From positions 1-53,566 of the forward strand of contig DATLTV010000013.1 in NCBI GenBank assembly GCA_035533375.1: DNA of 53,566 nt, written 5' to 3'. The stretch comes from Minisyncoccota bacterium. GTDB lineage: Bacteria; Patescibacteriota; Minisyncoccia; UBA6257; 2-01-FULL-56-20. Position numbers and translations under genes: made by a program. The first letter of the stretch is position 1. Every line of letters begins with the position of its first letter. Shown here in pieces: positions 8,654 through 38,937 of the stretch. The notes beneath the pieces are model-generated. The model was not told the DNA's origin. It did not search any database and was given only the letters and a program-made list of their open reading frames with translations.

Positions 8654-9301
8654 CTAAAACAGCTTCGGCGGCATTTTTTTCTTCGGCTTCGCGGACTCTT
8701 TTTTCGTCGCGGGCATTGCAGAAACAGGCACGGAAGCAACTGCTTCGGCAAGAAACTCGCCCGAAACAATCCTCGGCATTTTTTTAAAACTTTCGCGGAA
8801 GAGGCCCATCATTCCATTGCTGCGCAAGGCGGCCGCAGGATGGAGCATGGGCACTATCAACCGCGTGCTCAATTTGAACGCGTGCCCCTGGTCGCGCGTG
8901 ATCTTCGCCTCAGGCAAAAAATAGTTCATGGCGAAGCGGCCCAAAGGCACGATGATCTTCGGATTGATGATCTGGATCTGTCGCTTCAAATACGGCTTAT
9001 ATGCCGCAATTTCTTCCGGTAACGGATCGCGGTTCTCCGGCGGCCGGCGCTTCACGATATTTGTGATATATACTTGCTCCCGCTTCCAGCCGATCCCCCG
9101 CAAGCAATCGTTCAGAAGCTGTCCGCCGCGCCCCACGAACGGCCGCTTCTGCATGTCTTCGTTCGCTCCCGGCGCTTCGCCGATAAAAAGCACTTCGCAA
9201 TCCGGATTTCCTTCGCCAAAAACCAAATTCGTCGAAAGCGGAAGCGATTTGTCCGCGGCCATTTCCGCTGCAAGTTTTTTCAACACTTCCTTTTTTCCCA
9301 T
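8654..9301 (-). CDS. uracil-DNA glycosylase, family 4
   Basis: GEAPGANED, the FVGRGGQLL and HPAAALR motifs are present. The start is moved to ATG 9301 (MGKKEVLKKL...) because the track's longer N-terminus is encoded by the 38-nt palindrome. Confidence 0.85.
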   Translation of the reverse strand: MGKKEVLKKLAAEMAADKSLPLSTNLVFGEGNPDCEVLFIGEAPGANEDMQKRPFVGRGGQLLNDCLRGIGWKREQVYITNIVKRRPPENRDPLPEEIAAYKPYLKRQIQIINPKIIVPLGRFAMNYFLPEAKITRDQGHAFKLSTRLIVPMLHPAAALRSNGMMGLFRESFKKMPRIVSGEFLAEAVASVPVSAMPATKKESAKPKKKMPPKLF

Positions 9302-9334: not shown

Positions 9335-9372
9335 AATGTTACATTTTCTGCGATCGCAGAAAATGTAACATT
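9335..9372. repeat. perfect 38-nt palindrome, CGATCG-centred family, copy 1
   Basis: AATGTTACATTTTCTGCGATCGCAGAAAATGTAACATT equals its own reverse complement. It lies in the divergent spacer between the UDG gene and the 9430 gene. Confidence 0.9.
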
Positions 9373-9429
9373 GCAAAAGCCGCACAGCTGTGATAGAAAG
9401 TAGGCAGTAAAGTTCACAAGGAGCGGATC

Positions 9430-10566
9430 ATGAAAAAAATGCTGCGGCTCGCGGTTGAGCTCAATGGCCTTGCGCTTACGCTCGACGGGCCGAAACGGAA
9501 GGAACGCCTGGAGATCGCGGGGAGCTATCCGAATTCCCTGCTCGCCCGCTTTCTTTTCTCCCAGCTCGGCATGATGCATCTTGTCGCGCCGCATCTTCCG
9601 GAAATCATCGAAACAAATTTTTTTGTGGTGCGGGAAACGGAACGGCTCATCGATAAAATGTACGCGTCCGAAAACCGGTTGCCGCCGCATTTCAAAACTC
9701 CGATACTGAACGCCGCCGCATCATTTTCCCTGCCAAAAACCGATCGCAACAAAGTGGTCGTGGCATTTTCCGCCGGAAAAGATTCGCTCTGGAATGTGTG
9801 GTGGGCGCAGGAAAAATACGGAAAAGACAACGTGCTCGTCGTGCACATCGCCGGCTTGAATCGGGTAAATGCCTCGGGCGAGCGGAAATATGCGGAGCTC
9901 CAGGCGAAAAAACTCGGCTTCCGGCATTTCCGCGTCATCGAACTGCACAATGGATCCGTCGAAACCGGCTTCAAGGTAATGCGCTCGCGGGACATGTTCC
10001 TTGCGGGCATCATTATTCCGGCAGCTCTCGAATTCGGCGCGTCGAAAATCATCACCGAAGGATTCGGCGAGGATACTTCGAAACATCTCTTCACCGGCGA
10101 GGAAAGGAATATGCGTTACTTTAACGGTATGCTTCGCCGGCTCGGGATCCCCGTCGAAGTTGCATGGCGGAATCGGGCGGAAATGGATGTCGTAAAAGAC
10201 CTCGCCGTCCGCAAACCGGAATGGCTTGCACACGTCCACAATTGCTTTGCGCCTCCCTGCTACAAACCGTTGATTCAAAGGTCGTGGCGAAAACGGACAC
10301 CCACGTTTCCGCCGCTCGATTCGCAATGCGGTTCATGTGTGAAGTGCCGCATCACACGGCTCGGCGTATTGCTTTACGGCGATCATACGGTGAGCAGGAT
10401 TGACGCGGCGGAATTTCTCCGGCACACCGCAAAATGGATCGTGGAAAAATGGCCGACGCACGAAGACTTCCTGAACGGAAGCTTTCTCGAATGTTTTCGG
10501 GAAGCATGCAGGAAATACGATATTGTTCCGAAGCTTTCGGAATTGAAGATCAAACCGGCTGCCTGA
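9430..10566 (+). CDS. PP-loop ATP pyrophosphatase superfamily protein, QueC/ExsB-like core with about 110-aa N-terminal extension
   Basis: PP-loop VVAFSAGKDS; SRDMFLAGIIIPAALEFGASKIITEG; C-terminal Cys cluster HNCFAPPC...CGSCVKCRITR, similar to the QueC zinc site. Confidence 0.65.
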   Translation: MKKMLRLAVELNGLALTLDGPKRKERLEIAGSYPNSLLARFLFSQLGMMHLVAPHLPEIIETNFFVVRETERLIDKMYASENRLPPHFKTPILNAAASFSLPKTDRNKVVVAFSAGKDSLWNVWWAQEKYGKDNVLVVHIAGLNRVNASGERKYAELQAKKLGFRHFRVIELHNGSVETGFKVMRSRDMFLAGIIIPAALEFGASKIITEGFGEDTSKHLFTGEERNMRYFNGMLRRLGIPVEVAWRNRAEMDVVKDLAVRKPEWLAHVHNCFAPPCYKPLIQRSWRKRTPTFPPLDSQCGSCVKCRITRLGVLLYGDHTVSRIDAAEFLRHTAKWIVEKWPTHEDFLNGSFLECFREACRKYDIVPKLSELKIKPAA

Positions 10567-10591
10567 CGCAACCGGTTTTTTTATTCCTCTT

Positions 10592-10615
10592 TATCTTATT
10601 CGTACGAATAAGATA
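10592..10615. repeat. 24-nt perfect palindrome, ATTCG-NN-CGAAT family, copy 1
   Basis: TATCTTATTCGTACGAATAAGATA, 26 nt after the stop of the 9430 gene. Confidence 0.85.
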
Positions 10616-10656
10616 GGAAAATACGAAAAAAGGGAGGGGGGACGGGTAGCGGCAGC

Positions 10657-10684
10657 AAAAAACCCGCCGATTTCGGGCGGGTTT
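10657..10684. terminator. bidirectional intrinsic terminator
   Basis: AAAAAACCCGCC-GATTTCG-GGCGGGTTT with an A-run upstream and a T-run downstream, between convergent genes. Confidence 0.6.
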
Positions 10685-10695
10685 ATCGTTTTTTT

Positions 10696-11880
10696 TTATT
10701 TCACGTGCGCGAGGGCTTGTTTCAGGTCGTCAATCAGATCCCGCGGATCTTCGCGGCCGATCGAGAGCCGGAGCATGCCGTCGGGAATGCCCGCCTTCGA
10801 TCGTTCGTCGGGCGTCATCTGGCCGTGCGTTTCGAACGCGGGCGCCACGACAAGCGATCTCGCTTCGCCGATATTCGCCGCGTGCCAGAAGATCTTGAGT
10901 GACTCGAGCGCCGTACGTGTAGCCGCCTTTCCACCCCTGAGCTCGATGGCCATGAGGCCGCCGAATCCATCCGGCATGAGCGCGCGATTCGCCGCCGCGC
11001 GCGGCCCGAAGCTCGGATAGAACACCCGCTTCACCTTCGGATGCCGCGAAAGGAATTTTGCGATCTGCGCGGCGTTCACCGAGTGCTCCCGCATTCGCGC
11101 ATGGAGCGACTCGATGTGATAGCAGAGGATCTGCGCATTATCGGAGGACATACACGGTCCCGTGTCGCGGAACCAGCCGAGGCGAAGCGCGTCGATCATT
11201 TTTTTTCTGCCGAACACCGCGCCGCCGATTACCTCGCCGTCGCCCATATATTTCGAGAGCGATGCCACGCCGATGTCCGCGCCATGGGCGAGCGGACGAA
11301 GTAGTGCGGGCGTTGCCAGCGTGGAATCGACCACGAGCGGCAACCGGTGCCGGTGCGCGATTTTTGCAAGCGCTGCGATATCGATCAGGTCGATCAGCGG
11401 ATTCGAAGGCGTTTCGACGTAGAAAAACCGCGTGGTCGGCCCGATTGCCGCGTCCCATCGATCCATATTAAACGGGTCCTCCGCGAATGTCGCGAGGATG
11501 CCGAGCGCCTTCAAACGCTCGTGGAAAAGATGGTAGACGCCGCCATAGAGCCGGTTCGATGAAACAAAATGTCCTCCGCCGCTCGCAAGATGAAGCGCCA
11601 CAAGGAAGATCGCGGACATGCCGGACGAGGTTACGAGCGCCGCCTCGGCTCCTTCGAGAGCCGCAAGCCGTTTTTCGAGAGCATCGGTTGTAGGATTATT
11701 GATCCTGCTGTAAATAAATCCTTCCTCTTCGCCGGCAAAAAGCCGTCGTCCCCGCTCAAGGCTGCCGAGCGGAAACGCTATCGTTCGGTGCAACGCCGGT
11801 CGCAGATCTGCGGCGGATTCGCCGCTATTGCCATGGATCTCGAGCGTCTTCTCGCGTAACTCGATCTTCTTCCCGGCCAT
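10696..11880 (-). CDS. Cys/Met-metabolism PLP-dependent enzyme (O-acetylhomoserine sulfhydrylase / methionine gamma-lyase family)
   Basis: The track ORF is trimmed to ATG 11880 (MAGKKIELREKTLEIHG...), which is preceded by GAGGAGG. Family motifs: YSRINNPTTDALEKRLAALEG, SLSKYMGG (PLP lysine), and LRLSIGREDPRDLIDDL. Confidence 0.85.
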   Translation of the reverse strand: MAGKKIELREKTLEIHGNSGESAADLRPALHRTIAFPLGSLERGRRLFAGEEEGFIYSRINNPTTDALEKRLAALEGAEAALVTSSGMSAIFLVALHLASGGGHFVSSNRLYGGVYHLFHERLKALGILATFAEDPFNMDRWDAAIGPTTRFFYVETPSNPLIDLIDIAALAKIAHRHRLPLVVDSTLATPALLRPLAHGADIGVASLSKYMGDGEVIGGAVFGRKKMIDALRLGWFRDTGPCMSSDNAQILCYHIESLHARMREHSVNAAQIAKFLSRHPKVKRVFYPSFGPRAAANRALMPDGFGGLMAIELRGGKAATRTALESLKIFWHAANIGEARSLVVAPAFETHGQMTPDERSKAGIPDGMLRLSIGREDPRDLIDDLKQALAHVK

Positions 11881-12018
11881 AAGACCTCCTCTTTTATTAA
11901 TCTTTCTATCTTTCCTCATCCTACCGCCAATTCGCGGGAGAGCGCAACGTCGTGAGTTGACCTCATAAATTTTTTCGCATAGGCTGAAATCAGCGGACGC
12001 GTTGGACAAGGAGGCGAA

Positions 12019-12417
12019 ATGCCACGCCTGCGGCGGAAAAGAGCTTTCATTATCGGTCCCGTGCGGGAAATAACCGACGCGGAAAAGAAAGCAATCGGGG
12101 CGTATGTTCTTCGTTTGGAAAAACAAGGATATCACGTTCATTGGCCGCTGCGCGATACGCACCAGAGCGACCCGATCGGCAGTCAGATACTTAATGAAAA
12201 CTGCTGGGAGATCGAACGAGCGGACGAGATCCATATCTGGTGGAATAAAAATTCGGAAGGGTCGCACTTTGATCTCGGTATAGCGTTCGGGATGCGATAC
12301 GGAACGGTCCACACCGGCAAGAAGAAATTCGTGCTCATCAATCGCGAGAGCGTTCTGCCGACCAAATGCAAGAGCTTCGAAAATGCGCTTCTGTGGCTTA
12401 CCGAGCCGGACGCCTAA
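12019..12417 (+). CDS. hypothetical protein; weak resemblance to nucleoside 2-deoxyribosyltransferase-like fold
   Basis: 132-aa ORF preceded by AAGGAGG. The RAFIIGPVR ... ADEIHIWWNKNSEGSHFDLGIAFG pattern recalls the Rossmann-like deoxyribosyltransferase family. The assignment is tentative. Confidence 0.5.
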   Translation: MPRLRRKRAFIIGPVREITDAEKKAIGAYVLRLEKQGYHVHWPLRDTHQSDPIGSQILNENCWEIERADEIHIWWNKNSEGSHFDLGIAFGMRYGTVHTGKKKFVLINRESVLPTKCKSFENALLWLTEPDA

Positions 12418-12435
12418 GTGCCAGAAAAATAAATC

Positions 12436-12467
12436 AAAACGGCCCAGCAATAAATCGGGCCGTTTTT
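12436..12467 (+). terminator. intrinsic terminator
   Basis: AAAACGGCCC-11 nt-GGGCCGTTTTT. Confidence 0.55.
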
Positions 12468-12734
12468 CATTTTTATCGGGAAGCCCGGCTGTCTATGCTC
12501 CGTATGCCGGAACGTACGCGAAAACTTTCTTCGTCTTTCTCGCTTCGGTATTTTCGATCTTCCTGCCGATATATGAAGCGCCGATTCTGCCGCTCCAGAC
12601 CCAATTTGCCTCCGAGCGGATTGCAGCCGTGTTTGTATTTTTTACCCCCACCGTTTTTCCTTTATATGAATAAATCATTGTTTTATAGTTTTGATTTATA
12701 TGTATCTCGACTTTTTCTTTAATTGTAGCCGCTC

Positions 12735-12777
12735 TGTCAAGTATGTCAAGTCTTAGGGGGTTGTGGATAAGTCAAGC
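12735..12777 (+). promoter_or_regulatory. tandem TGTCAAGT direct repeats upstream of the LexA-like gene (candidate operator)
   Basis: TGTCAAGT at 12735-12742 and 12744-12751, AGTCAAGC at 12770-12777. Another TGTCAAGT at 18631-18638 lies 29 nt upstream of the XRE gene start. Confidence 0.3.
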
Positions 12778-13464
12778 TTTCCGATATGCTATACTGGAAT
12801 CATGCACAGTATACAAGACAAGCTTCTCGACCTTTCGAAGCGGGAAAACCTCGCCAAATTGAGCCTTCGCGACATGGCCAAAGAGATCGGCCTTCCCGGC
12901 GAATCCCCCCAGAAGATCAAACACCACCTGCTTCAGCTGCAAAAAAAGGGCTTTTTGAGCATCGATAAGGCCAAGGGCGTGATGGAGCGGGCGTCCTCCA
13001 CTCCGGGCTGGGCAAGGGGGTTGCTGGACAAGACCTCCTCGCTTTTCTCGATCCCCATCGTCGGCACCGCGAACTGCGGTCCGGCAACAATCTTCGCGGA
13101 GCAGAATTTTCACGGGTTTATTCGGGTTTCGAGTAAACTCATCGGCCGCGCGAAACCGACCGGTCTTTATGCCATCAAAGCCGACGGCTCCTCTATGAAT
13201 TGCGCGGAGATAGGCGGCAGAAAGATAGAAGACGGCGATTTTATGATTGTCGACAAAAATCAGACTGATCCCAAGACCGGCGACGCTGTTCTCGCGATCA
13301 TCGACAACAAAGCGACCGTGAAGCGATTCATTGACGATCGCAAAAACGGCCAGATCGTCCTCCGCGCCGATTCCTCGTTCGATTACGAACCGATCTATCT
13401 CCATCCCGACGATGACTTCTCGATCAGCGGCAAAGTGGTGGGGGTGATCAAGCGCTCTTCCTAG
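12763..13464 (+). CDS. LexA-like repressor: winged-HTH plus S24 peptidase domain
   Basis: N-terminal HTH (LSLRDMAKEIGLPGESPQKIKHHLLQLQKKGFL). The S24 domain has GSSM (Ser nucleophile) and ATVKRF (Lys). The start is ambiguous. GTG 12763 is preceded by AGGGGG. ATG 12802 lies just downstream of TGcTATACT and would give a leaderless mRNA. Confidence 0.8.
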   Translation: MDKSSFPICYTGIMHSIQDKLLDLSKRENLAKLSLRDMAKEIGLPGESPQKIKHHLLQLQKKGFLSIDKAKGVMERASSTPGWARGLLDKTSSLFSIPIVGTANCGPATIFAEQNFHGFIRVSSKLIGRAKPTGLYAIKADGSSMNCAEIGGRKIEDGDFMIVDKNQTDPKTGDAVLAIIDNKATVKRFIDDRKNGQIVLRADSSFDYEPIYLHPDDDFSISGKVVGVIKRSS

Positions 13465-14230
13465 GACCAGTCTGAAGATTTTTTGCGATAAGGCACAAAA
13501 ATAACGGTATTTCTTTTCTTGCTTCGTTTTCGGCATTCGCGCGAGGGCCGGGATCGCTTTTGCGATTGGAATTCCATTCCTCGAGCGCGGAGACGGAAAG
13601 CCCCGCTTTGTTCAGCGCTTTAAAATAGAACTGGAGCGGACGATGGAATGTGAGCGTATACTGGTCCGGTTGGTCGCCGGGATGCATCTGTATTTTTACT
13701 TTCGCCTCGGAAAGGTAACGATCGATGCGGCGATATTGCGTTTTTTCTTTTTCATCCCATTCCCAGCTGCTCGCCCTGGGAACGCGGAAAGCGGGATGCG
13801 TGATCACGGCGAAGAGCATGCCACCGGGTTTTAGCACGCGCGTACATTCGCGGAAAACGCCGGCTACGTCCCGGATATTCTGTAGCGCAAGCACGATCGC
13901 GATTTTGTCCACGCTCCGATCTTTTAAAAATGGCAGCGAATCAGCCGAGGCAACCCGGAAATCGATGTTCTTCGGCATGTTCCTGCGCGCAAGCGCGATG
14001 AGCGCCGGCGAGACGTCGACGCCAACCACGCGATCGCTCAATCCTGCGAACTCCCGCGCAAAAAATCCCTGTCCGCAGGCGAGATCGAGTACTCCCTCTC
14101 CCTTTTTGATATCCATCAACCGTAAAATGTTTGGCAGGATCAGGTCGCGCTGATACGTTCCCCCTTCCGCAAGATGGCTATCGTACCAATCGGCGGCTTT
14201 TTCCCATGAGGTATCGTCGTGCTGTGGCAT
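13448..14230 (-). CDS. class I SAM-dependent methyltransferase
   Basis: Motif I VLDLACGQGFF, followed by VVGVDVS and LKPGGMLF. Confidence 0.85.
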   Translation of the reverse strand: MPQHDDTSWEKAADWYDSHLAEGGTYQRDLILPNILRLMDIKKGEGVLDLACGQGFFAREFAGLSDRVVGVDVSPALIALARRNMPKNIDFRVASADSLPFLKDRSVDKIAIVLALQNIRDVAGVFRECTRVLKPGGMLFAVITHPAFRVPRASSWEWDEKEKTQYRRIDRYLSEAKVKIQMHPGDQPDQYTLTFHRPLQFYFKALNKAGLSVSALEEWNSNRKSDPGPRANAENEARKEIPLFLCLIAKNLQTGPRKSA

Positions 14231-14279
14231 GGCTATAGAATATCACAAAACGGAGGCGCTCGAAGCCCGGGCCATCTCA

Positions 14280-14309
14280 TTGGAAAATCATAAGAAAAAG
14301 ACTTATAAT
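14280..14309 (+). promoter_or_regulatory. candidate promoter for the DinB-family gene
   Basis: TTGGAA (14280-14285), 18 nt, TATAAT (14304-14309). This supports the ATG 14328 start. Confidence 0.4.
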
Positions 14310-14327
14310 TCGGAGACAAACAAAACT

Positions 14328-14807
14328 ATGGACGCCGATCAAAAATTACGGGAGGAGTTGCTGGACTACCTCGATAGTGCGTGCACACACAAGCCGCTCA
14401 CGGAGGCCGCGAAAGATTTTCCTGCGGAATTTATAAACAGGAAAGTCGAAGGCGCGCCTTATTCTCCGTGGGGGCTCTTGGAACACATCCGCATTACGCA
14501 GCGCGACATGGTGAACTTCATCGAAAATCACGATTACAAAGAAATGGATTGGCCGAAGGATTATTGGCCGAAACGCACGGAAAATGCCACGCGAAAAATG
14601 TGGGAAAATACACTCGCCGAATATCTGAAAGACCTGGAAGCGTTGAGGCGCATCGTGAAAGACCCGAAGAACGATCTGCTCTCCCCGATCCCGCGCGGCA
14701 GCGGCCAGACGATCCTGAAGGAAGTGATGCAAATCGTTGACCACACAAGCTACCATACGGGCGAGCTCGTTCTCGCGCGGCGAAATATCGGCGCGTGGAA
14801 AGAGTGA
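14328..14807 (+). CDS. DinB-family (DinB_2-like) metal-dependent protein
   Basis: Trimmed to MDADQKLREELLDYL... (GGAGA sits 9 nt upstream). The His-containing helices EHIRITQRDM and IVDHTSYHTGELV are typical of the DinB four-helix bundle. Confidence 0.7.
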   Translation: MDADQKLREELLDYLDSACTHKPLTEAAKDFPAEFINRKVEGAPYSPWGLLEHIRITQRDMVNFIENHDYKEMDWPKDYWPKRTENATRKMWENTLAEYLKDLEALRRIVKDPKNDLLSPIPRGSGQTILKEVMQIVDHTSYHTGELVLARRNIGAWKE

Positions 14808-14819
14808 TTTTGCGGTCTT

Positions 14820-14857
14820 CCGCTACCGGCTAATTCGCACGAATTAGCCGGTAGCGG
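14820..14857. repeat. 38-nt palindrome, ATTCG-NN-CGAAT family, copy 2
   Basis: CCGCTACCGGCTAATTCG-CA-CGAATTAGCCGGTAGCGG with 18-bp perfect arms, 13 nt after the DinB stop. Confidence 0.9.
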
Positions 14858-14960
14858 GAATTATCTCTTGCGCAGCCGATCGCCCGGCTTCGGGCATGCG
14901 GAAATGGCGCAATAAACTTGACCTCGCCGGATTTGATAGGGGACTCACCCCCCCCGTTTT

Positions 14961-15335
14961 TTACTCCTTCGTTTCCAAATCCAGGCAGACCGAGTTTATG
15001 CAATATCTTTTTCCTCCCCGTTCCTTCGGGCCGTCGTCGAAGACGTGGCCGAGATGCGCGCCGCAGTTCTTGCAGCGGACTTCGGTGCGCTTCATGCCGA
15101 AACCAGAATCGCCGTGCAGTTCCACGTGCTCCAAATTCGCCGGCTCGGTAAACGAAGGCCAGCCGGTGCCGGAATCGAACTTCGTATCCGACGAAAAAAG
15201 CTCCGCGCCGCAGATCGCGCACTTGTACACGCCCTTCTCGTGATTATTCCAGTATTTTCCGGTGAACGCCGCCTCGGTTCCCTGCTTGCGGGCAACTTGG
15301 TAAAGTTCTTTTGAAAGTTCCTCGTCTTTTTTCAT
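14961..15335 (-). CDS. msrB: peptide-methionine (R)-S-oxide reductase
   Basis: Zinc CxxC pairs (CAICGAEL, CKNCGAHLGHVF) and the catalytic RYCINS motif. Confidence 0.95.
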   Translation of the reverse strand: MKKDEELSKELYQVARKQGTEAAFTGKYWNNHEKGVYKCAICGAELFSSDTKFDSGTGWPSFTEPANLEHVELHGDSGFGMKRTEVRCKNCGAHLGHVFDDGPKERGGKRYCINSVCLDLETKE

Positions 15336-15360
15336 GATTATTTCTCGTGATTAATGTTCG

Positions 15361-15396
15361 TGTTGCGCTTTTGTACGATCGCACAAAAGTGCAACA
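15361..15396. repeat. CGATCG-centred palindrome family, copy 2 (imperfect)
   Basis: TGTTGCGCTTTTGTACGATCGCACAAAAGTGCAACA, 36 nt with 2 mismatched positions, between the msrA stop (15401) and the msrB start (15335). Confidence 0.8.
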
Positions 15397-15400
15397 TCTT

Positions 15401-15967
15401 TTATTCGCGTTTTTCGCCGTCCGTATTATTTTTTAACAGCTCCGCGAACTTGTTCTGTAATTTCTCGACCTTGGGCTCGATGATTAATTGGCAATAGGGC
15501 TGAAAGGAATTTTTCTTATAGTAATTGCGATGATAGTCCTCGGCGGGGTAGAACGCATCGAGCGGCGCAACTTCCGTAACCACCGGTTTTCCGCTAGGGT
15601 CGGAAGCGGCGAGCTCCGTGATGAATTTCTCCGTTTCGGTCTTCTGCTCCGGCGTCACGTAGAAAACGGCGGAGCGATATTGCGTGCCGACGTCGTTCCC
15701 TTGGCGATTCATGGTTGTCGGATCGTGCGTGGCAAAAAATACGGTGAGCAAGTCCCCGAACAGGATCTTCGACGGATCATACTCGATATGCGTCGCTTCC
15801 GCGTGGCCGGTCTTTCCGGTGCATACTTGTTCGTAGGTCGGGTTCTTTGTCGTACCGCCGGCATAGCCCGGCATCACGGAAACAACGCCTTTAAGCTCGC
15901 GAAAGATCGCTTCCGTACACCAAAAACATCCACCCGCGAAAACGACGACTTGTGTTTTATTTTCCAT
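15401..15967 (-). CDS. msrA: peptide-methionine (S)-S-oxide reductase
   Basis: GCFWC active site (VFAGGCFWCTEAIF), GHAEA, and the YHRNYY motif. Confidence 0.95.
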   Translation of the reverse strand: MENKTQVVVFAGGCFWCTEAIFRELKGVVSVMPGYAGGTTKNPTYEQVCTGKTGHAEATHIEYDPSKILFGDLLTVFFATHDPTTMNRQGNDVGTQYRSAVFYVTPEQKTETEKFITELAASDPSGKPVVTEVAPLDAFYPAEDYHRNYYKKNSFQPYCQLIIEPKVEKLQNKFAELLKNNTDGEKRE

Positions 15968-15969
15968 GG

Positions 15970-17193
15970 TTATCCGAATGTGAATGTATATGCGTTAAGT
16001 CCCGGGTTATCGATAATGAGCTCGAGCGTGTGCTCCGAATTAAAATCCGCGCAGCCCGACCCGCTACAAGCGGCGGTATTGTTCACTATATTATAAAGCC
16101 GGCTCGATTGAATGATCACCTTCCCGCCGCGCACGTCGCTTCCGGCATTCGTTGCATCCACGGGCTTCCCATCCTGCAGGACTTCGATGGTCACGGAAGA
16201 GGACGCGCTCGCGACGAGATTTACCTTCGGAGCTTTATATAAATAAAATATTTTTGCGCCTGCGGCGGTATTTTCCGCATATTCCTGTTCAAAGTCCCAT
16301 GACCCGGAAAGATAGAGTGCATTAAGCTGCATTGTTGAAGGCGCGGATAATTCCTGCGCGCCCGCTTTTCCCTGGCTGCCGTTCGCAAGATACACGTTCC
16401 GCGCGGCGCCGAAGTACGTTTCGGGGCTCGCAATTCCGGAAAGATCGGCCGGCGCGATGTTCACGGTCGAGGTCGCAACGGCCTGGTCTGTTCCAAGGAT
16501 CTGCGCGCGCTGCGCCAAAAGCTTTTGGATTTCGGTCTCGGTTTCGCCGTAATTTCCTTCACCAATCTGGTCGTGGGCGATATAGCCCGCCATATCGATC
16601 AAATATTCATGTGGCCAATACAGATTGCCGTATGCCTGCCAGGTACCGTAATTCGAATCGAGCACGACGGGATAGGCAATGCCGAACTTTTGCACCGCCG
16701 CCCGGACATTGTTGATATCTTTTTCAAAATCAAACTCCGGCGTGTGGATGCCCACAATCTCGAGTCCTTCGTTTTTATACTTCACATCCCAGGCCGCGAG
16801 ATACGGGATCGTCCTGATGCAATTGATACAGCTGTACGTCCAGAAGTCGAGAAGGATCACTTTTTTACCGACAAGGCTTGCGAGTTTGAAGCCGCTCGAA
16901 GTATTCACGAATCCCGTCGGATCCTGGATCTCGCGGGCCGGGCTCGCGCCCGCTTTCTCGTCGGCTGCGGCGAGCGCGGTGATTTGGGCGTCAGCCGAAG
17001 CCGATTGAAGTTGCGGCACGGAAGAAGAAGTTGCACTCGGGACGGTTGCCGGAGGCAGGGTGTTCGCCGCGATTGAAGGAGCCCCGCCGGACGGCACCGC
17101 GCCGGGATGCACGCTCACCGATTCGAGATACCAGATCGAGCCCGCGATTGCGGCGAGCGTGACGATAAACGCAATTTTCTTTTTGATAAACAT
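15970..17193 (-). CDS. membrane-anchored thioredoxin-fold thiol-disulfide oxidoreductase (TlpA / DipZ C-terminal-like) with extra beta-rich C-terminal domain
   Basis: N-terminal anchor, Trx motif FWTYSCINCIRTIP (CxxC), then about 200 aa resembling the carbohydrate-binding-like tail of DipZ-type proteins. It lies adjacent to ccdA. Confidence 0.8.
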   Translation of the reverse strand: MFIKKKIAFIVTLAAIAGSIWYLESVSVHPGAVPSGGAPSIAANTLPPATVPSATSSSVPQLQSASADAQITALAAADEKAGASPAREIQDPTGFVNTSSGFKLASLVGKKVILLDFWTYSCINCIRTIPYLAAWDVKYKNEGLEIVGIHTPEFDFEKDINNVRAAVQKFGIAYPVVLDSNYGTWQAYGNLYWPHEYLIDMAGYIAHDQIGEGNYGETETEIQKLLAQRAQILGTDQAVATSTVNIAPADLSGIASPETYFGAARNVYLANGSQGKAGAQELSAPSTMQLNALYLSGSWDFEQEYAENTAAGAKIFYLYKAPKVNLVASASSSVTIEVLQDGKPVDATNAGSDVRGGKVIIQSSRLYNIVNNTAACSGSGCADFNSEHTLELIIDNPGLNAYTFTFG

Positions 17194-17208
17194 GGCTTTT
17201 ATCGAGAT

Positions 17209-17246
17209 AGCGTTGCATTTTCTACGATCGTAGAAAATGCAACGCT
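17209..17246. repeat. perfect 38-nt palindrome, CGATCG-centred family, copy 3
   Basis: AGCGTTGCATTTTCTACGATCGTAGAAAATGCAACGCT, between the ccdA stop (17254) and the Trx-like gene start (17193). Confidence 0.9.
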
Positions 17247-17253
17247 GCCAGAT

Positions 17254-17973
17254 TTACGATTTTAATTTTAATATCAAATCATTCACGAACCCGAAATTCG
17301 CAATGAGCGAGATATCCTGCGTGAAGACAAGCACGCCGATCGCGACGAGGATGGCGCCGAATACTTTGTTTACCCATTGGATTTTCACCATGTACCGATT
17401 AATGAACCGTGAGCTCTGCGCGACAAAAAGTCCGACAACAAGAAACGGGACCCCGAGACCGATTGCATAGGAAAGCAAAAGGTAAAATGCTTCGCCCGGC
17501 GCCGATGCCGCCAGCCCGAGGATGCCGCCAAGCACGGGGCCCACGCACGGTGTCCAGCCGGCGGCGAAAGCGAGTCCGAAGAGGAACGAGGTGAGATAGC
17601 GCGAGCGCACCCGCACCTTGAAATTCAGCTTATGATCGTATTCAAAAAATCCGATTTTTAAAAAACCCATGAGATAAAGCCCGAAAAAGATAACGATTGC
17701 CCCGCCGATGCGCGAAAGCCACGCCTGCACGGAATATGCCGCGTGTGCGAGAACACCGTTCAACAGCACGCCAAGGATCGCGAAAACGGACGAGAAACCG
17801 ATTACAAAGAACAGGCTCGCGAGAAAGATTGTGAGGCGCGACGGCTTCGGGCCACCCGACGACGATTCGCCCGCGAGATAGGCGAGAAATCCGGGGATTA
17901 TCGGAAGTATGCACGGCGAAAGGAACGAAACAATTCCGGCGAAGAAAGCGATGAGAAGCGGGAAGTCGCTCAT
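17254..17973 (-). CDS. ccdA: cytochrome c biogenesis / thiol-disulfide transporter CcdA (DsbD-beta family)
   Basis: Polytopic membrane protein with the two conserved Cys motifs FLSPCILPIIPGF and AAGWTPCVGPVLG. Confidence 0.9.
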   Translation of the reverse strand: MSDFPLLIAFFAGIVSFLSPCILPIIPGFLAYLAGESSSGGPKPSRLTIFLASLFFVIGFSSVFAILGVLLNGVLAHAAYSVQAWLSRIGGAIVIFFGLYLMGFLKIGFFEYDHKLNFKVRVRSRYLTSFLFGLAFAAGWTPCVGPVLGGILGLAASAPGEAFYLLLSYAIGLGVPFLVVGLFVAQSSRFINRYMVKIQWVNKVFGAILVAIGVLVFTQDISLIANFGFVNDLILKLKS

Positions 17974-17977
17974 AAAT

Positions 17978-18340
17978 CTATTTCTTAATTTTGGCGTACA
18001 TAAGCCCTGCGATCTTCGCGATGATCATGACATCGAGCGCGAGAATAAGCCATGGATCGCTTTGACGGGCGAATTCTCCGACGACGATTCCGAGGAGCAA
18101 GAAGCCCGATCCCGCAAGAAACGCCATTTGGTCCGCGGAAAGATTATGGAGGCGTTCACGCTCATCGGCAGGATTTTCGCGCCAGATGAAGATCGCAAAC
18201 ACTCCGAATAGCGCCGCCATTGCCGCAAGTATCGTCATGACGAGATAGGTCGGCATAAAAACACCCCAAGGATTCAGCACGACAAAGAGCAGTGCGAGTA
18301 GCACGACCGCGACCGTAAATTCTCCTAAAAAGTTTTTCAT
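17978..18340 (-). CDS. small membrane protein (4 predicted helices), downstream partner of the XRE regulator
   Basis: Hydrophobic 120-aa ORF. This HTH-plus-membrane-protein pairing is common. Confidence 0.65.
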   Translation of the reverse strand: MKNFLGEFTVAVVLLALLFVVLNPWGVFMPTYLVMTILAAMAALFGVFAIFIWRENPADERERLHNLSADQMAFLAGSGFLLLGIVVGEFARQSDPWLILALDVMIIAKIAGLMYAKIKK

Positions 18341-18352
18341 ATCCTTGATTTT

Positions 18353-18390
18353 TTTGTTACATTTTCCGCGATCGCAGAAAATGTAACAAA
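18353..18390. repeat. CGATCG-centred palindrome family, copy 4 (1 mismatch)
   Basis: TTTGTTACATTTTCCGCGATCGCAGAAAATGTAACAAA. It lies 9 nt after the XRE stop and 13 nt before the start of the 17978..18340 gene. Confidence 0.85.
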
Positions 18391-18398
18391 TACAATTT

Positions 18399-18602
18399 TT
18401 ATTTTAGCGAGAATATCTCTTCAAGAGGTTTTTTGAAGAACCGGGAGATTTTCAATGCGAGTAAAATCGACGGCGCATAATTTCCTTTTTCGATCGCGAT
18501 GATCGTCTGGCGCGTGATGCCGACTTTCCGCGCAAGCTCCTCCTGGGTCATCCCGAGCCGCTCACGCGCTTCATAGACGGTATTCAAGACCTTCTCGCTC
18601 AT
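18399..18602 (-). CDS. XRE-family helix-turn-helix transcriptional regulator (67 aa)
   Basis: LGMTQEELARKVGITRQTIIAIEKGNYAPSILLALKISRFF is a classic HTH_3 sequence. Confidence 0.9.
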   Translation of the reverse strand: MSEKVLNTVYEARERLGMTQEELARKVGITRQTIIAIEKGNYAPSILLALKISRFFKKPLEEIFSLK

Positions 18603-18753
18603 TATTTCATGCTACGCCGCAAAAAACAGATGTCAAGTGTGCTTTACATTGGCCGGGATGATTTTCGCGGTTGCCATGCGGGGCAAGTGCCTTGGTCGCT
18701 TTCGGCGGCTTATACTGCCCGTTCCGGGCCGTACCCGGAGGATGCTCGGACGG

Positions 18754-38907: not shown

Positions 38908-38937
38908 CATCGGCTAATTCGTGCGAATTAGCCGATG
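38908..38937. repeat. 30-nt palindrome, ATTCG-NN-CGAAT family, copy 3
   Basis: CATCGGCTAATTCG-TG-CGAATTAGCCGATG, 23 nt after the argS stop. It shares a 24-nt core with copy 2. Confidence 0.9.

Follow-up and report, generated by a model that had tools for sequence, protein, structure and literature searches.

Dispersed CGATCG-centred palindromes of a Minisyncoccota genome as possible recognition sites of its mini-PaaX protein

The DNA that was analysed (the window) is the 53,566-nucleotide contig DATLTV010000013.1 from assembly GCA_035533375.1 of a Minisyncoccota bacterium. The window carries four copies of a long palindrome centred on CGATCG, and the palindrome family they belong to is named family A here. 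Family A is strictly intergenic, blind to gene orientation, specific to its lineage and absent from the orthologous junctions of relatives. It also brackets a gene for a winged-helix and Cas2-like protein, which is termed mini-PaaX. A moderately probable explanation is that the four palindromes are dispersed copies of a private recognition palindrome of the single mini-PaaX protein of this genome, which would have spread in the manner of repetitive extragenic palindromes (REP); the binding of the palindrome by the protein is proposed. The genome (G000, in which the window is contig C13) consists of 853 kb in 94 contigs with 54.5% G+C and is about 86% complete. Other labels starting with G or L denote the other genomes and contigs that were compared, where G001 and G002 are from the same genus as G000. 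The genomes of the relatives range from 0.5 to 1.3 Mb, and the homologous proteins carry the labels Patescibacteria, Paceibacterota or Minisyncoccia.

The genome has a single PaaX_M gene. Its product of about 170 amino acids begins with a winged helix and continues with a Cas2-like domain. The gene starts at C58:13130. Contig C58 ends inside the gene and contig C57 opens with its last 17 codons (C57:1-54), where the two frames abut with a gap of 1 nt. One copy of family A ends 2 nt before the ATG of the gene ('ACC' lies between), and a TATAAT box is found 4 nt upstream of that palindrome. A second copy starts 20 nt past the stop codon, on C57. If the palindrome were taken out, the upstream region would read TATAAT-7 nt-ATG, a leaderless promoter of a kind that is also seen elsewhere in G000. 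The PaaX middle, Cas2-like domain (PF20803) is matched with an E-value of 8.5e-10 by the G000 protein and of 6.8e-19 by the protein of contig L013. The PaaX N-terminal winged helix (PF07848) is matched with an E-value of 0.0096 and 16.6 bits, which is under the cut-off of 24.8 bits, and there is no match to the PaaX_C domain in the G000 protein. A profile of the protein family matches structures of Cas2 (6jhz and 8ia4, E-values of about 7e-4) and, weakly, winged-helix regulators of the MarR, PadR and AspA types. The Cas2-like domain retains the FDIPE...QKSVW signature, in which the Asp of FDIPE is invariant.

The pairing of the gene with a palindrome recurs in relatives. PaaX_M genes are found in 12 of 26 relatives, with one to three in each. 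A long palindrome lies near the start, the stop or both at 13 of 17 PaaX_M loci; about 12 of these are within about 80 nt of the gene, and the palindrome of L033 is 235 nt upstream. Most of these palindromes have no spacer, and a few have a centre of 4-6 nt. Five loci exhibit the same palindrome on both sides of the gene. The palindromes differ between genomes and between PaaX_M paralogs, and many are centred on CGATCG. The pairing is also found in G001 and in the Saccharibacteria contig L013, which was picked up through the palindrome core alone. No description of palindromes paired with a mini-PaaX gene was found in the literature searched.

Sixteen copies of family A were identified in G000 (13 canonical copies and three divergent copies of the GTTTC type), and all of them are intergenic in a genome with a coding share of about 82-90%. 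The scan of the genome that an earlier note on the window had proposed therefore gives no copy inside a gene, with four copies in the window and the other 12 on further contigs of G000; that note had likewise seen no further copies in the window. About ten copies lie in co-directional spacers, three in convergent spacers (C10:6419, C30:1637, and C75:1801) and two in divergent spacers. The expected shares, taken from G000 spacers of suitable size, are 0.65 co-directional, 0.18 convergent and 0.16 divergent. Family A is without orientation bias and matches a random intergenic draw; the three convergent copies among the 14 that do not bracket the mini-PaaX gene are the chance share. The most perfect copy (C10, arms of 23 nt) sits between the two stop codons of convergent genes, and the C30 copy is flanked on both sides by ordinary hairpin-plus-T-tract terminators. 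Copy counts come from fragmented assemblies and are lower bounds. Assembly breaks fall at or near palindromes, where contigs C53 and C80 of G001 begin in or at palindromes and the break between C58 and C57 of G000 falls within the mini-PaaX gene, between its two bracketing copies.

The four palindromes of the window were all found where the earlier note had placed them. Copy 1 (9335..9372) is perfect with 19-nt arms that are 100% complementary, and it lies in the divergent spacer between the gene for uracil-DNA glycosylase (UDG, minus strand) and a gene for a 378-aa protein (plus strand). Copy 2 lies at the msrA/msrB junction. It had been described as a palindrome with two mismatches at 15361-15396; the two non-Watson-Crick positions are there, but the copy is a variant with arms that are 1 nt longer (15360..15397). 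Copy 3 (17209..17246) is a perfect 38-mer with 19-nt arms at the ccdA/trx junction. Copy 4 (18353..18390) lies at the junction of the XRE gene and the 120-aa gene and has one mismatch, which is C.A in DNA and a G.U pair in minus-strand RNA. The 32-nt consensus given in the earlier note has three matches in the window at no more than one mismatch and none in 100 shuffles. It misses copy 2 because both arms of that copy bear one extra base (GTTGCGCTTTTGTACGA and TCGCACAAAAGTGCAAC). The predicted RNA folds of the four copies have stems of 17-19 bp and a GAUC loop, with energies between -19.7 and -27.1 kcal/mol and z-scores between -4.6 and -8.6. The gaps to the minus-strand start codons are 33 nt (UDG), 25 nt (MsrB), 15 nt (thioredoxin-like protein) and 12 nt (120-aa membrane protein), which agree with the 10-35 nt that had been noted. 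Copies 2-4 are 3-8 nt behind the stop codon of the preceding gene, as had been observed, and copy 4 begins 9 nt past the stop codon of the XRE gene.

Copies 2-4 lie inside one operon on the minus strand. The first gene of this operon is conserved and encodes a 67-aa XRE-family protein (18399..18602; Pfam HTH_3, E = 4e-18). It is followed by the gene for the 120-aa membrane protein (17978..18340), which has a collinear ortholog in L066, by ccdA for a CcdA/DsbD_TM thiol-disulfide transporter (17254..17973), by trx for a 407-aa thioredoxin-like/redoxin protein (15970..17193), by msrA (15401..15967; PMSR, E = 2e-65) and by msrB (14961..15335; SelR, E = 1e-51). A promoter-like site, TTGACA-16-TAGCAT, was identified by consensus scan on the minus strand at 18609..18636, which is 6 nt before the ATG of the XRE gene. 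This site implies a leaderless XRE transcript by prediction, and copies 4, 3 and 2 would therefore lie inside one transcription unit. The gene for the UDG, of family-4 type (8654..9301, minus strand), has a TATAAT box 6 nt before its ATG, and copy 1 is 21 nt upstream of that box. The identities given to these genes from the letters alone (UDG, msrB, thioredoxin-like, small membrane protein, and XRE) agree with the domain searches. In many genes, a -10 box precedes the ATG by 6-8 nt and a Shine-Dalgarno sequence is missing (9280-9301, 12785-12805, and 18602-18636 of the window, and several other contigs), and leaderless mRNAs seem common in this genome. Other genes, such as one at 9430, have a clear AAGGAG.

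The same operon is found without palindromes in a relative. The 827-kb contig L066 has the order XRE-120aa-ccdA-trx-(FMN reductase)-msrA-msrB and no palindrome at the XRE/120-aa, ccdA/trx or msrA/msrB junctions. The XRE/120-aa junction is -4 nt (an overlap) in L066 and 58 nt in G000, the ccdA/trx junction is 4 nt in L066 and 60 nt in G000, and the msrA/msrB junction is 35 nt in L066 and 65 nt in G000. The ends of the operon proteins are collinear between L066 and G000. The ccdA-trx junction is free of palindromes in six relatives (G001, G002, G007, L063, L065, and L066), where it is an overlap or 4-10 nt in four and longer in two. The empty junctions suggest that the three operon copies are lineage-specific insertions; copies 2-4 look like later arrivals in a conserved operon rather than ancestral operators. 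A 24-nt core pattern, with up to two mismatches, has 11 matches in G000, two in G001 (with the symmetric variant centre CGGCCG) and none in G002, and at most one match in each of three genomes among the other 58 relatives. A longer pattern finds a third G001 copy, on C70.

The arms of family A vary symmetrically. Variants are changed on both sides (GTTACA/TGTAAC vs GTTGCA/TGCAAC, and CTG/CAG vs CTA/TAG). Arm position 4 is A...T, G...C or T...A, position 13 is G...C or A...T, and 1-nt insertions are found in both arms. Full pairing of positions 17-19 is kept by 11 of the 16 copies despite at least six different triplets. By this comparison of copies, independent selection of half-sites would not yield such a pattern. 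The symmetry points to selection for a hairpin or cruciform, to template-switch correction of quasi-palindromes, which is a known mutational process, or to a mechanism that copies one arm from the other. No preference for G.U on the transcribed strand is seen among the mismatches, so a constraint at the RNA level is not indicated and RNA-level selection was rejected.

Private palindromes are also dispersed in four other genomes. G003 has 21 copies, of which 19 are dispersed and 15 are identical over a 22-nt core. Such identity over 22 nt exceeds what binding alone would require. The neighbours of the G003 copies have no functional theme, and at least two of about 12 are convergent. G039 has six copies, of which four are dispersed and lie upstream of groES, clpP, iscS, and ftsA. 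G009 and G040 have three copies each with one dispersed, and the dispersed copy of G009 lies in a convergent spacer and has a symmetric double change. When the dispersed copies of G000 and of three relatives are pooled, 6 of 31 are convergent vs about 18% expected. No regulon content common to the genomes was seen among the neighbours of the private palindromes compared. G000 (C75:1783-1820) and G003 (locus L077), from two genera, each have their own private palindrome after the 3' end of an orthologous gene for a cytidylyltransferase-like protein of about 138 aa. Upstream of typA, a second palindrome family (family B) is found in G000 and the private family in G003. Such coincidences of shared neighbours are about as many as chance would give.

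These findings indicate that the family spread within the lineage of G000 into intergenic spacers whatever the orientation of the genes. A dimer of mini-PaaX would bind the 38-bp dyad, where the Cas2-like dimer, which is conserved, would lie over CGATCG, the centre that many of the palindromes share, and the variable arms would be read by the winged helices, which are poorly conserved. The copy between the TATAAT box and the ATG of mini-PaaX would give autorepression. The copies inside the operon are probably protein-bound or hairpin obstacles: the bound protein or a 17-19-bp mRNA hairpin may be a roadblock, or a processing or stability element, and the downstream genes would be uncoupled. The copies may have spread replicatively; this is favoured because the G003 copies are near-identical and the orientation classes are chance-like.

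Several points weigh against this explanation. The link between protein and palindrome is one of position only. Insertion polymorphism was sought and none was seen directly, where contigs of the same strain are 99.96-100% identical, the next relative is at 64% (protein) and the collections contain no informative intermediate between them. The same strain was found in ERZ27256801, ERZ27256814, ERZ27256799 and JGI 3300031671. The genome is about 86% complete. Repair genes make up four of the roughly 13 genes found downstream of copies (UDG, HhH-GPD glycosylase, MGMT-like, and RuvC). A rough binomial estimate of this enrichment is about 1e-3, uncorrected for a category that was chosen post hoc and under an assumed share of about 3% repair genes, which is an estimate and not a count. 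Three more copies lie in the Msr/Trx operon, and neighbours so coherent in function speak for a selected regulon. The four dispersed copies of G039 are all in 5' regions, two of them at heat-shock genes.

A selected damage-repair regulon is the strongest alternative, which we regard as unlikely on balance. Mini-PaaX would repress its own gene together with ruvC, the Msr/Trx genes and the genes for UDG, the HhH-GPD glycosylase and the MGMT-like protein, and a signal would release it; the sites would have been recruited by selection rather than by selfish spread. In its favour, besides the coherence of the downstream genes, many copies are found beside -10-like boxes at a distance of 2-45 nt upstream of a start codon, and a palindrome between the TATAAT box and the ATG of the regulator is the classic layout of autorepression. 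The winged helix of the protein is of the PaaX/MarR type, and the four dispersed copies of G039 are all upstream of genes. However, the non-bracketing copies in convergent spacers include the most perfect one (C10) and occur at the chance share, and three copies lie within a transcription unit at junctions that are closed in relatives. The theme of damage repair that the earlier note had proposed is seen in part in G000 but not around the private palindromes of relatives, and the genomes share no regulon content. Outer arms that are specific to each copy yet complementary, and 100% identity over more than 22 bp in 15 G003 copies, would also not be expected from selection of binding sites. The spread of the palindromes and the regulon are compatible, where a DNA-binding protein may have dispersed sites that come to serve as operators by co-option.

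A bolder version of the spread is quite unlikely in our estimate. In this version, mini-PaaX is a Cas2-derived, structure-specific or sequence-specific DNA-processing factor. It would recognise the CGATCG-centred palindrome, either extruded or as duplex, and would copy it, or help to copy it, to new intergenic sites. If this is true, the copying factor would be part of a repeat-plus-protein symbiosis like that of REP and REP-associated tyrosine transposases (RAYT), on a fold unrelated to the HUH transposases.

Hairpins that act independently of any protein are improbable. The palindromes would be REP-like stabilisers of mRNA 3' ends, processing sites or partial terminators, or else DNA cruciforms, and their adjacency to mini-PaaX would be incidental. 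The predicted stems are very stable, the symmetric arm changes keep the pairing, some copies lie between convergent genes, and 12 of 17 copies in co-directional spacers of G000 and G003 are closer to the upstream stop codon than to the downstream start codon. Against this, no U-tract follows copies 2-4 in the sense in which they are transcribed, the genome has normal terminators at other places and on both sides of the C30 copy, and G.U is not favoured among the mismatches on the transcribed strand. Structure alone also leaves unexplained the shared 32-nt sequence, the CGATCG centre common to other families and the bracketing of 13 of 17 PaaX_M loci. An intrinsic terminator was rejected, where the stems are A+T-rich. 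The terminator scan flagged copies 1 and 2 only on the strand without an upstream gene to terminate and left copies 3 and 4 unflagged. A search of the RNA families of Rfam 15 gave chance matches of hairpin type only, at 24 bits vs gathering scores of 70-110 bits.

The earlier note had offered two readings, which were REP-like hairpins serving as terminators or insulators and operators of a small damage-repair regulon, possibly controlled by the adjacent 67-aa XRE protein. The first of them is closer to the evidence: the palindromes are repeated, intergenic, orientation-blind, lineage-specific and inserted in otherwise tight junctions, but a terminator without a U-tract does not fit a genome that uses ordinary hairpin-plus-T-tract terminators. 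The second is hardly credible, for although XRE proteins commonly bind palindromes and copy 4 begins just after the XRE stop codon, the XRE gene of L066 heads the same operon and overlaps the next gene with no palindrome, the leaderless promoter of the XRE gene itself has no copy, 15 of the 16 copies are not beside an XRE gene, and the gene that is bracketed is mini-PaaX. The co-conservation of the XRE gene and the palindrome that had been suggested as a check thus fails in L066, and XRE is an ancestral member of the operon, not a partner of the palindrome.

The closest analogue of family A is the REP/RAYT system by layout, and PaaX and more distantly Cas2 by protein, where each fails some of the defining features. 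Similar to REP/REPIN sequences, the palindromes are short and extragenic, are repeated through the genome, and have a sequence and copy number specific to the lineage. Both are found in every type of spacer, often just past stop codons, and in both one protein gene is flanked by the repeats (single-copy here, with one to three paralogs in relatives). However, the flanked gene here encodes a winged-helix and Cas2-like protein, not an HUH/Y1 transposase. Palindromes of the family A type are perfect dyads of 36-46 bp with no spacer, a conserved centre and variable ends, whereas REP sequences are imperfect hairpins with a GTAG or CGTC tag. The copy number is also low here (3-21 per genome). No GTAG or CGTC tag is found at one end of the hairpin; CTAC...GTAG occurs only beside the centre, in copies with A/T at arm position 13, and the remaining copies have CTGC...GCAG there. 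The sole Y1_Tnp (RAYT/IS200-like) gene of G000 (C3:400-1080, minus strand) is flanked by inverted copies of GGGAAAACAGTGTCAGGTACCG, not by family A. A 46-nt palindrome related to that flanking repeat is found at C72:2509-2554. RAYT-driven REP sequences were rejected, where the Y1 transposase is flanked by another repeat and family A brackets the PaaX_M gene.

PaaX is a phenylacetyl-CoA-responsive repressor that recognises a long dyad-symmetric DNA target. Mini-PaaX is like PaaX in its N-terminal winged helix followed by a Cas2-like middle domain (a PF20803 match) and in its putative long dyad-symmetric target, and the palindrome that separates the -10 box from the start of its own gene is placed as for a repressor. 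It differs from PaaX in being about half the size, with no PaaX_C and with PF07848 below the cut-off. Its gene is bracketed on both sides, copies are found in convergent spacers and operon junctions, and there is no link to phenylacetate genes. The sites of a PaaX-type repressor would be restricted to promoters; here 3 of 14 dispersed copies are convergent and three more lie within an operon.

The central domain of mini-PaaX matches Cas2 structures and keeps FDIP...QKSVW. The palindromes match CRISPR repeats in size and, as many of those repeats, start with GTT and end with AAC. However, no arrays, spacers or Cas1 were seen, and the copies are isolated single sites; a CRISPR array was set aside on this ground. 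The cyanobacterial HIP1 (GCGATCGC) has the same palindromic core (GCGATCGC or ACGATCGT), but family A consists of 38-bp palindromes instead of 8-mers. A hyperabundance like that of HIP1 was rejected with a Markov model, where GCGATCGC is observed 115 times vs 106.7 expected, and CGATCG is not among the over-represented 6-mer palindromes of G000. An integron attC site was set aside: the ends resemble GTTRCAT...ATGYAAC, but the core sites come in the opposite order, cassettes do not have one site each, and no integrase gene was seen in the vicinity. A LexA/SOS box was rejected, where no family A site lies upstream of lexA and the motif is unlike GAAC-N4-GTTC. The lexA gene of the window (12803-13464, plus strand; LexA_DNA_bind and Peptidase_S24) has a leaderless TATACT-6 nt-ATG start, and no obvious GAAC-N4-GTTC box is found upstream of it.

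Other palindrome families were also identified in G000. Family B (GCATGCTACAAAAGTGACGATCGTCACTTTTGTAGCATGC) has about nine copies within longer repeats. These are perfect CGATCG-centred palindromes of 40-44 nt on contigs C2, C4, C9, C22, C45, C61, C63, and C65, many of which are short, and they have conserved flanks such as GTATTGCGAG...GGGTTATGCRATAACGC. By its flanks, family B looks like a larger repeated element. A heat-shock operator of the CIRCE type was rejected for family B, where the neighbours are typA, lepA, a DEAD-box helicase gene, and others and the palindrome lies inside longer repeats. Family C has the same CGATCG centre as family A. Family D (TTACCGGCTAATTCGYRCGAATTAGCCGGTAA) has 20 copies, all intergenic and in every orientation class. 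Its structure is TTACCGGCTAATTCG-YR-CGAATTAGCCGGTAA, and it is oriented because the central dinucleotide is free. Copies of family D lie in the window at 14820-14857 and 38908-38937, with a variant at 10592-10615. No cognate gene of family D was identified in G000. The gene for DinB (DNA polymerase IV, C34:5842-7124) is bracketed by two copies of family D, with a third 350 nt further, which may be chance or a second bracketing system.

Patescibacteria have tiny and tightly packed genomes with few recognisable regulators or mobile elements. A module of one protein and its private palindrome that recurs across this group would matter whether the palindromes were spread or selected as a regulon. 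As a family of regulators, it would be large and undescribed, and its operators would be unusually long. As a repeat system, it would represent a novel type of repeat element, either domesticated or selfish. A copying system of this kind, if true, would be common across Patescibacteria, and it could split compact operons and so rewire them. G000 exhibits a concrete effect, where three insertions split a conserved oxidative-repair operon; in a relative, the genes of this operon overlap or almost touch.

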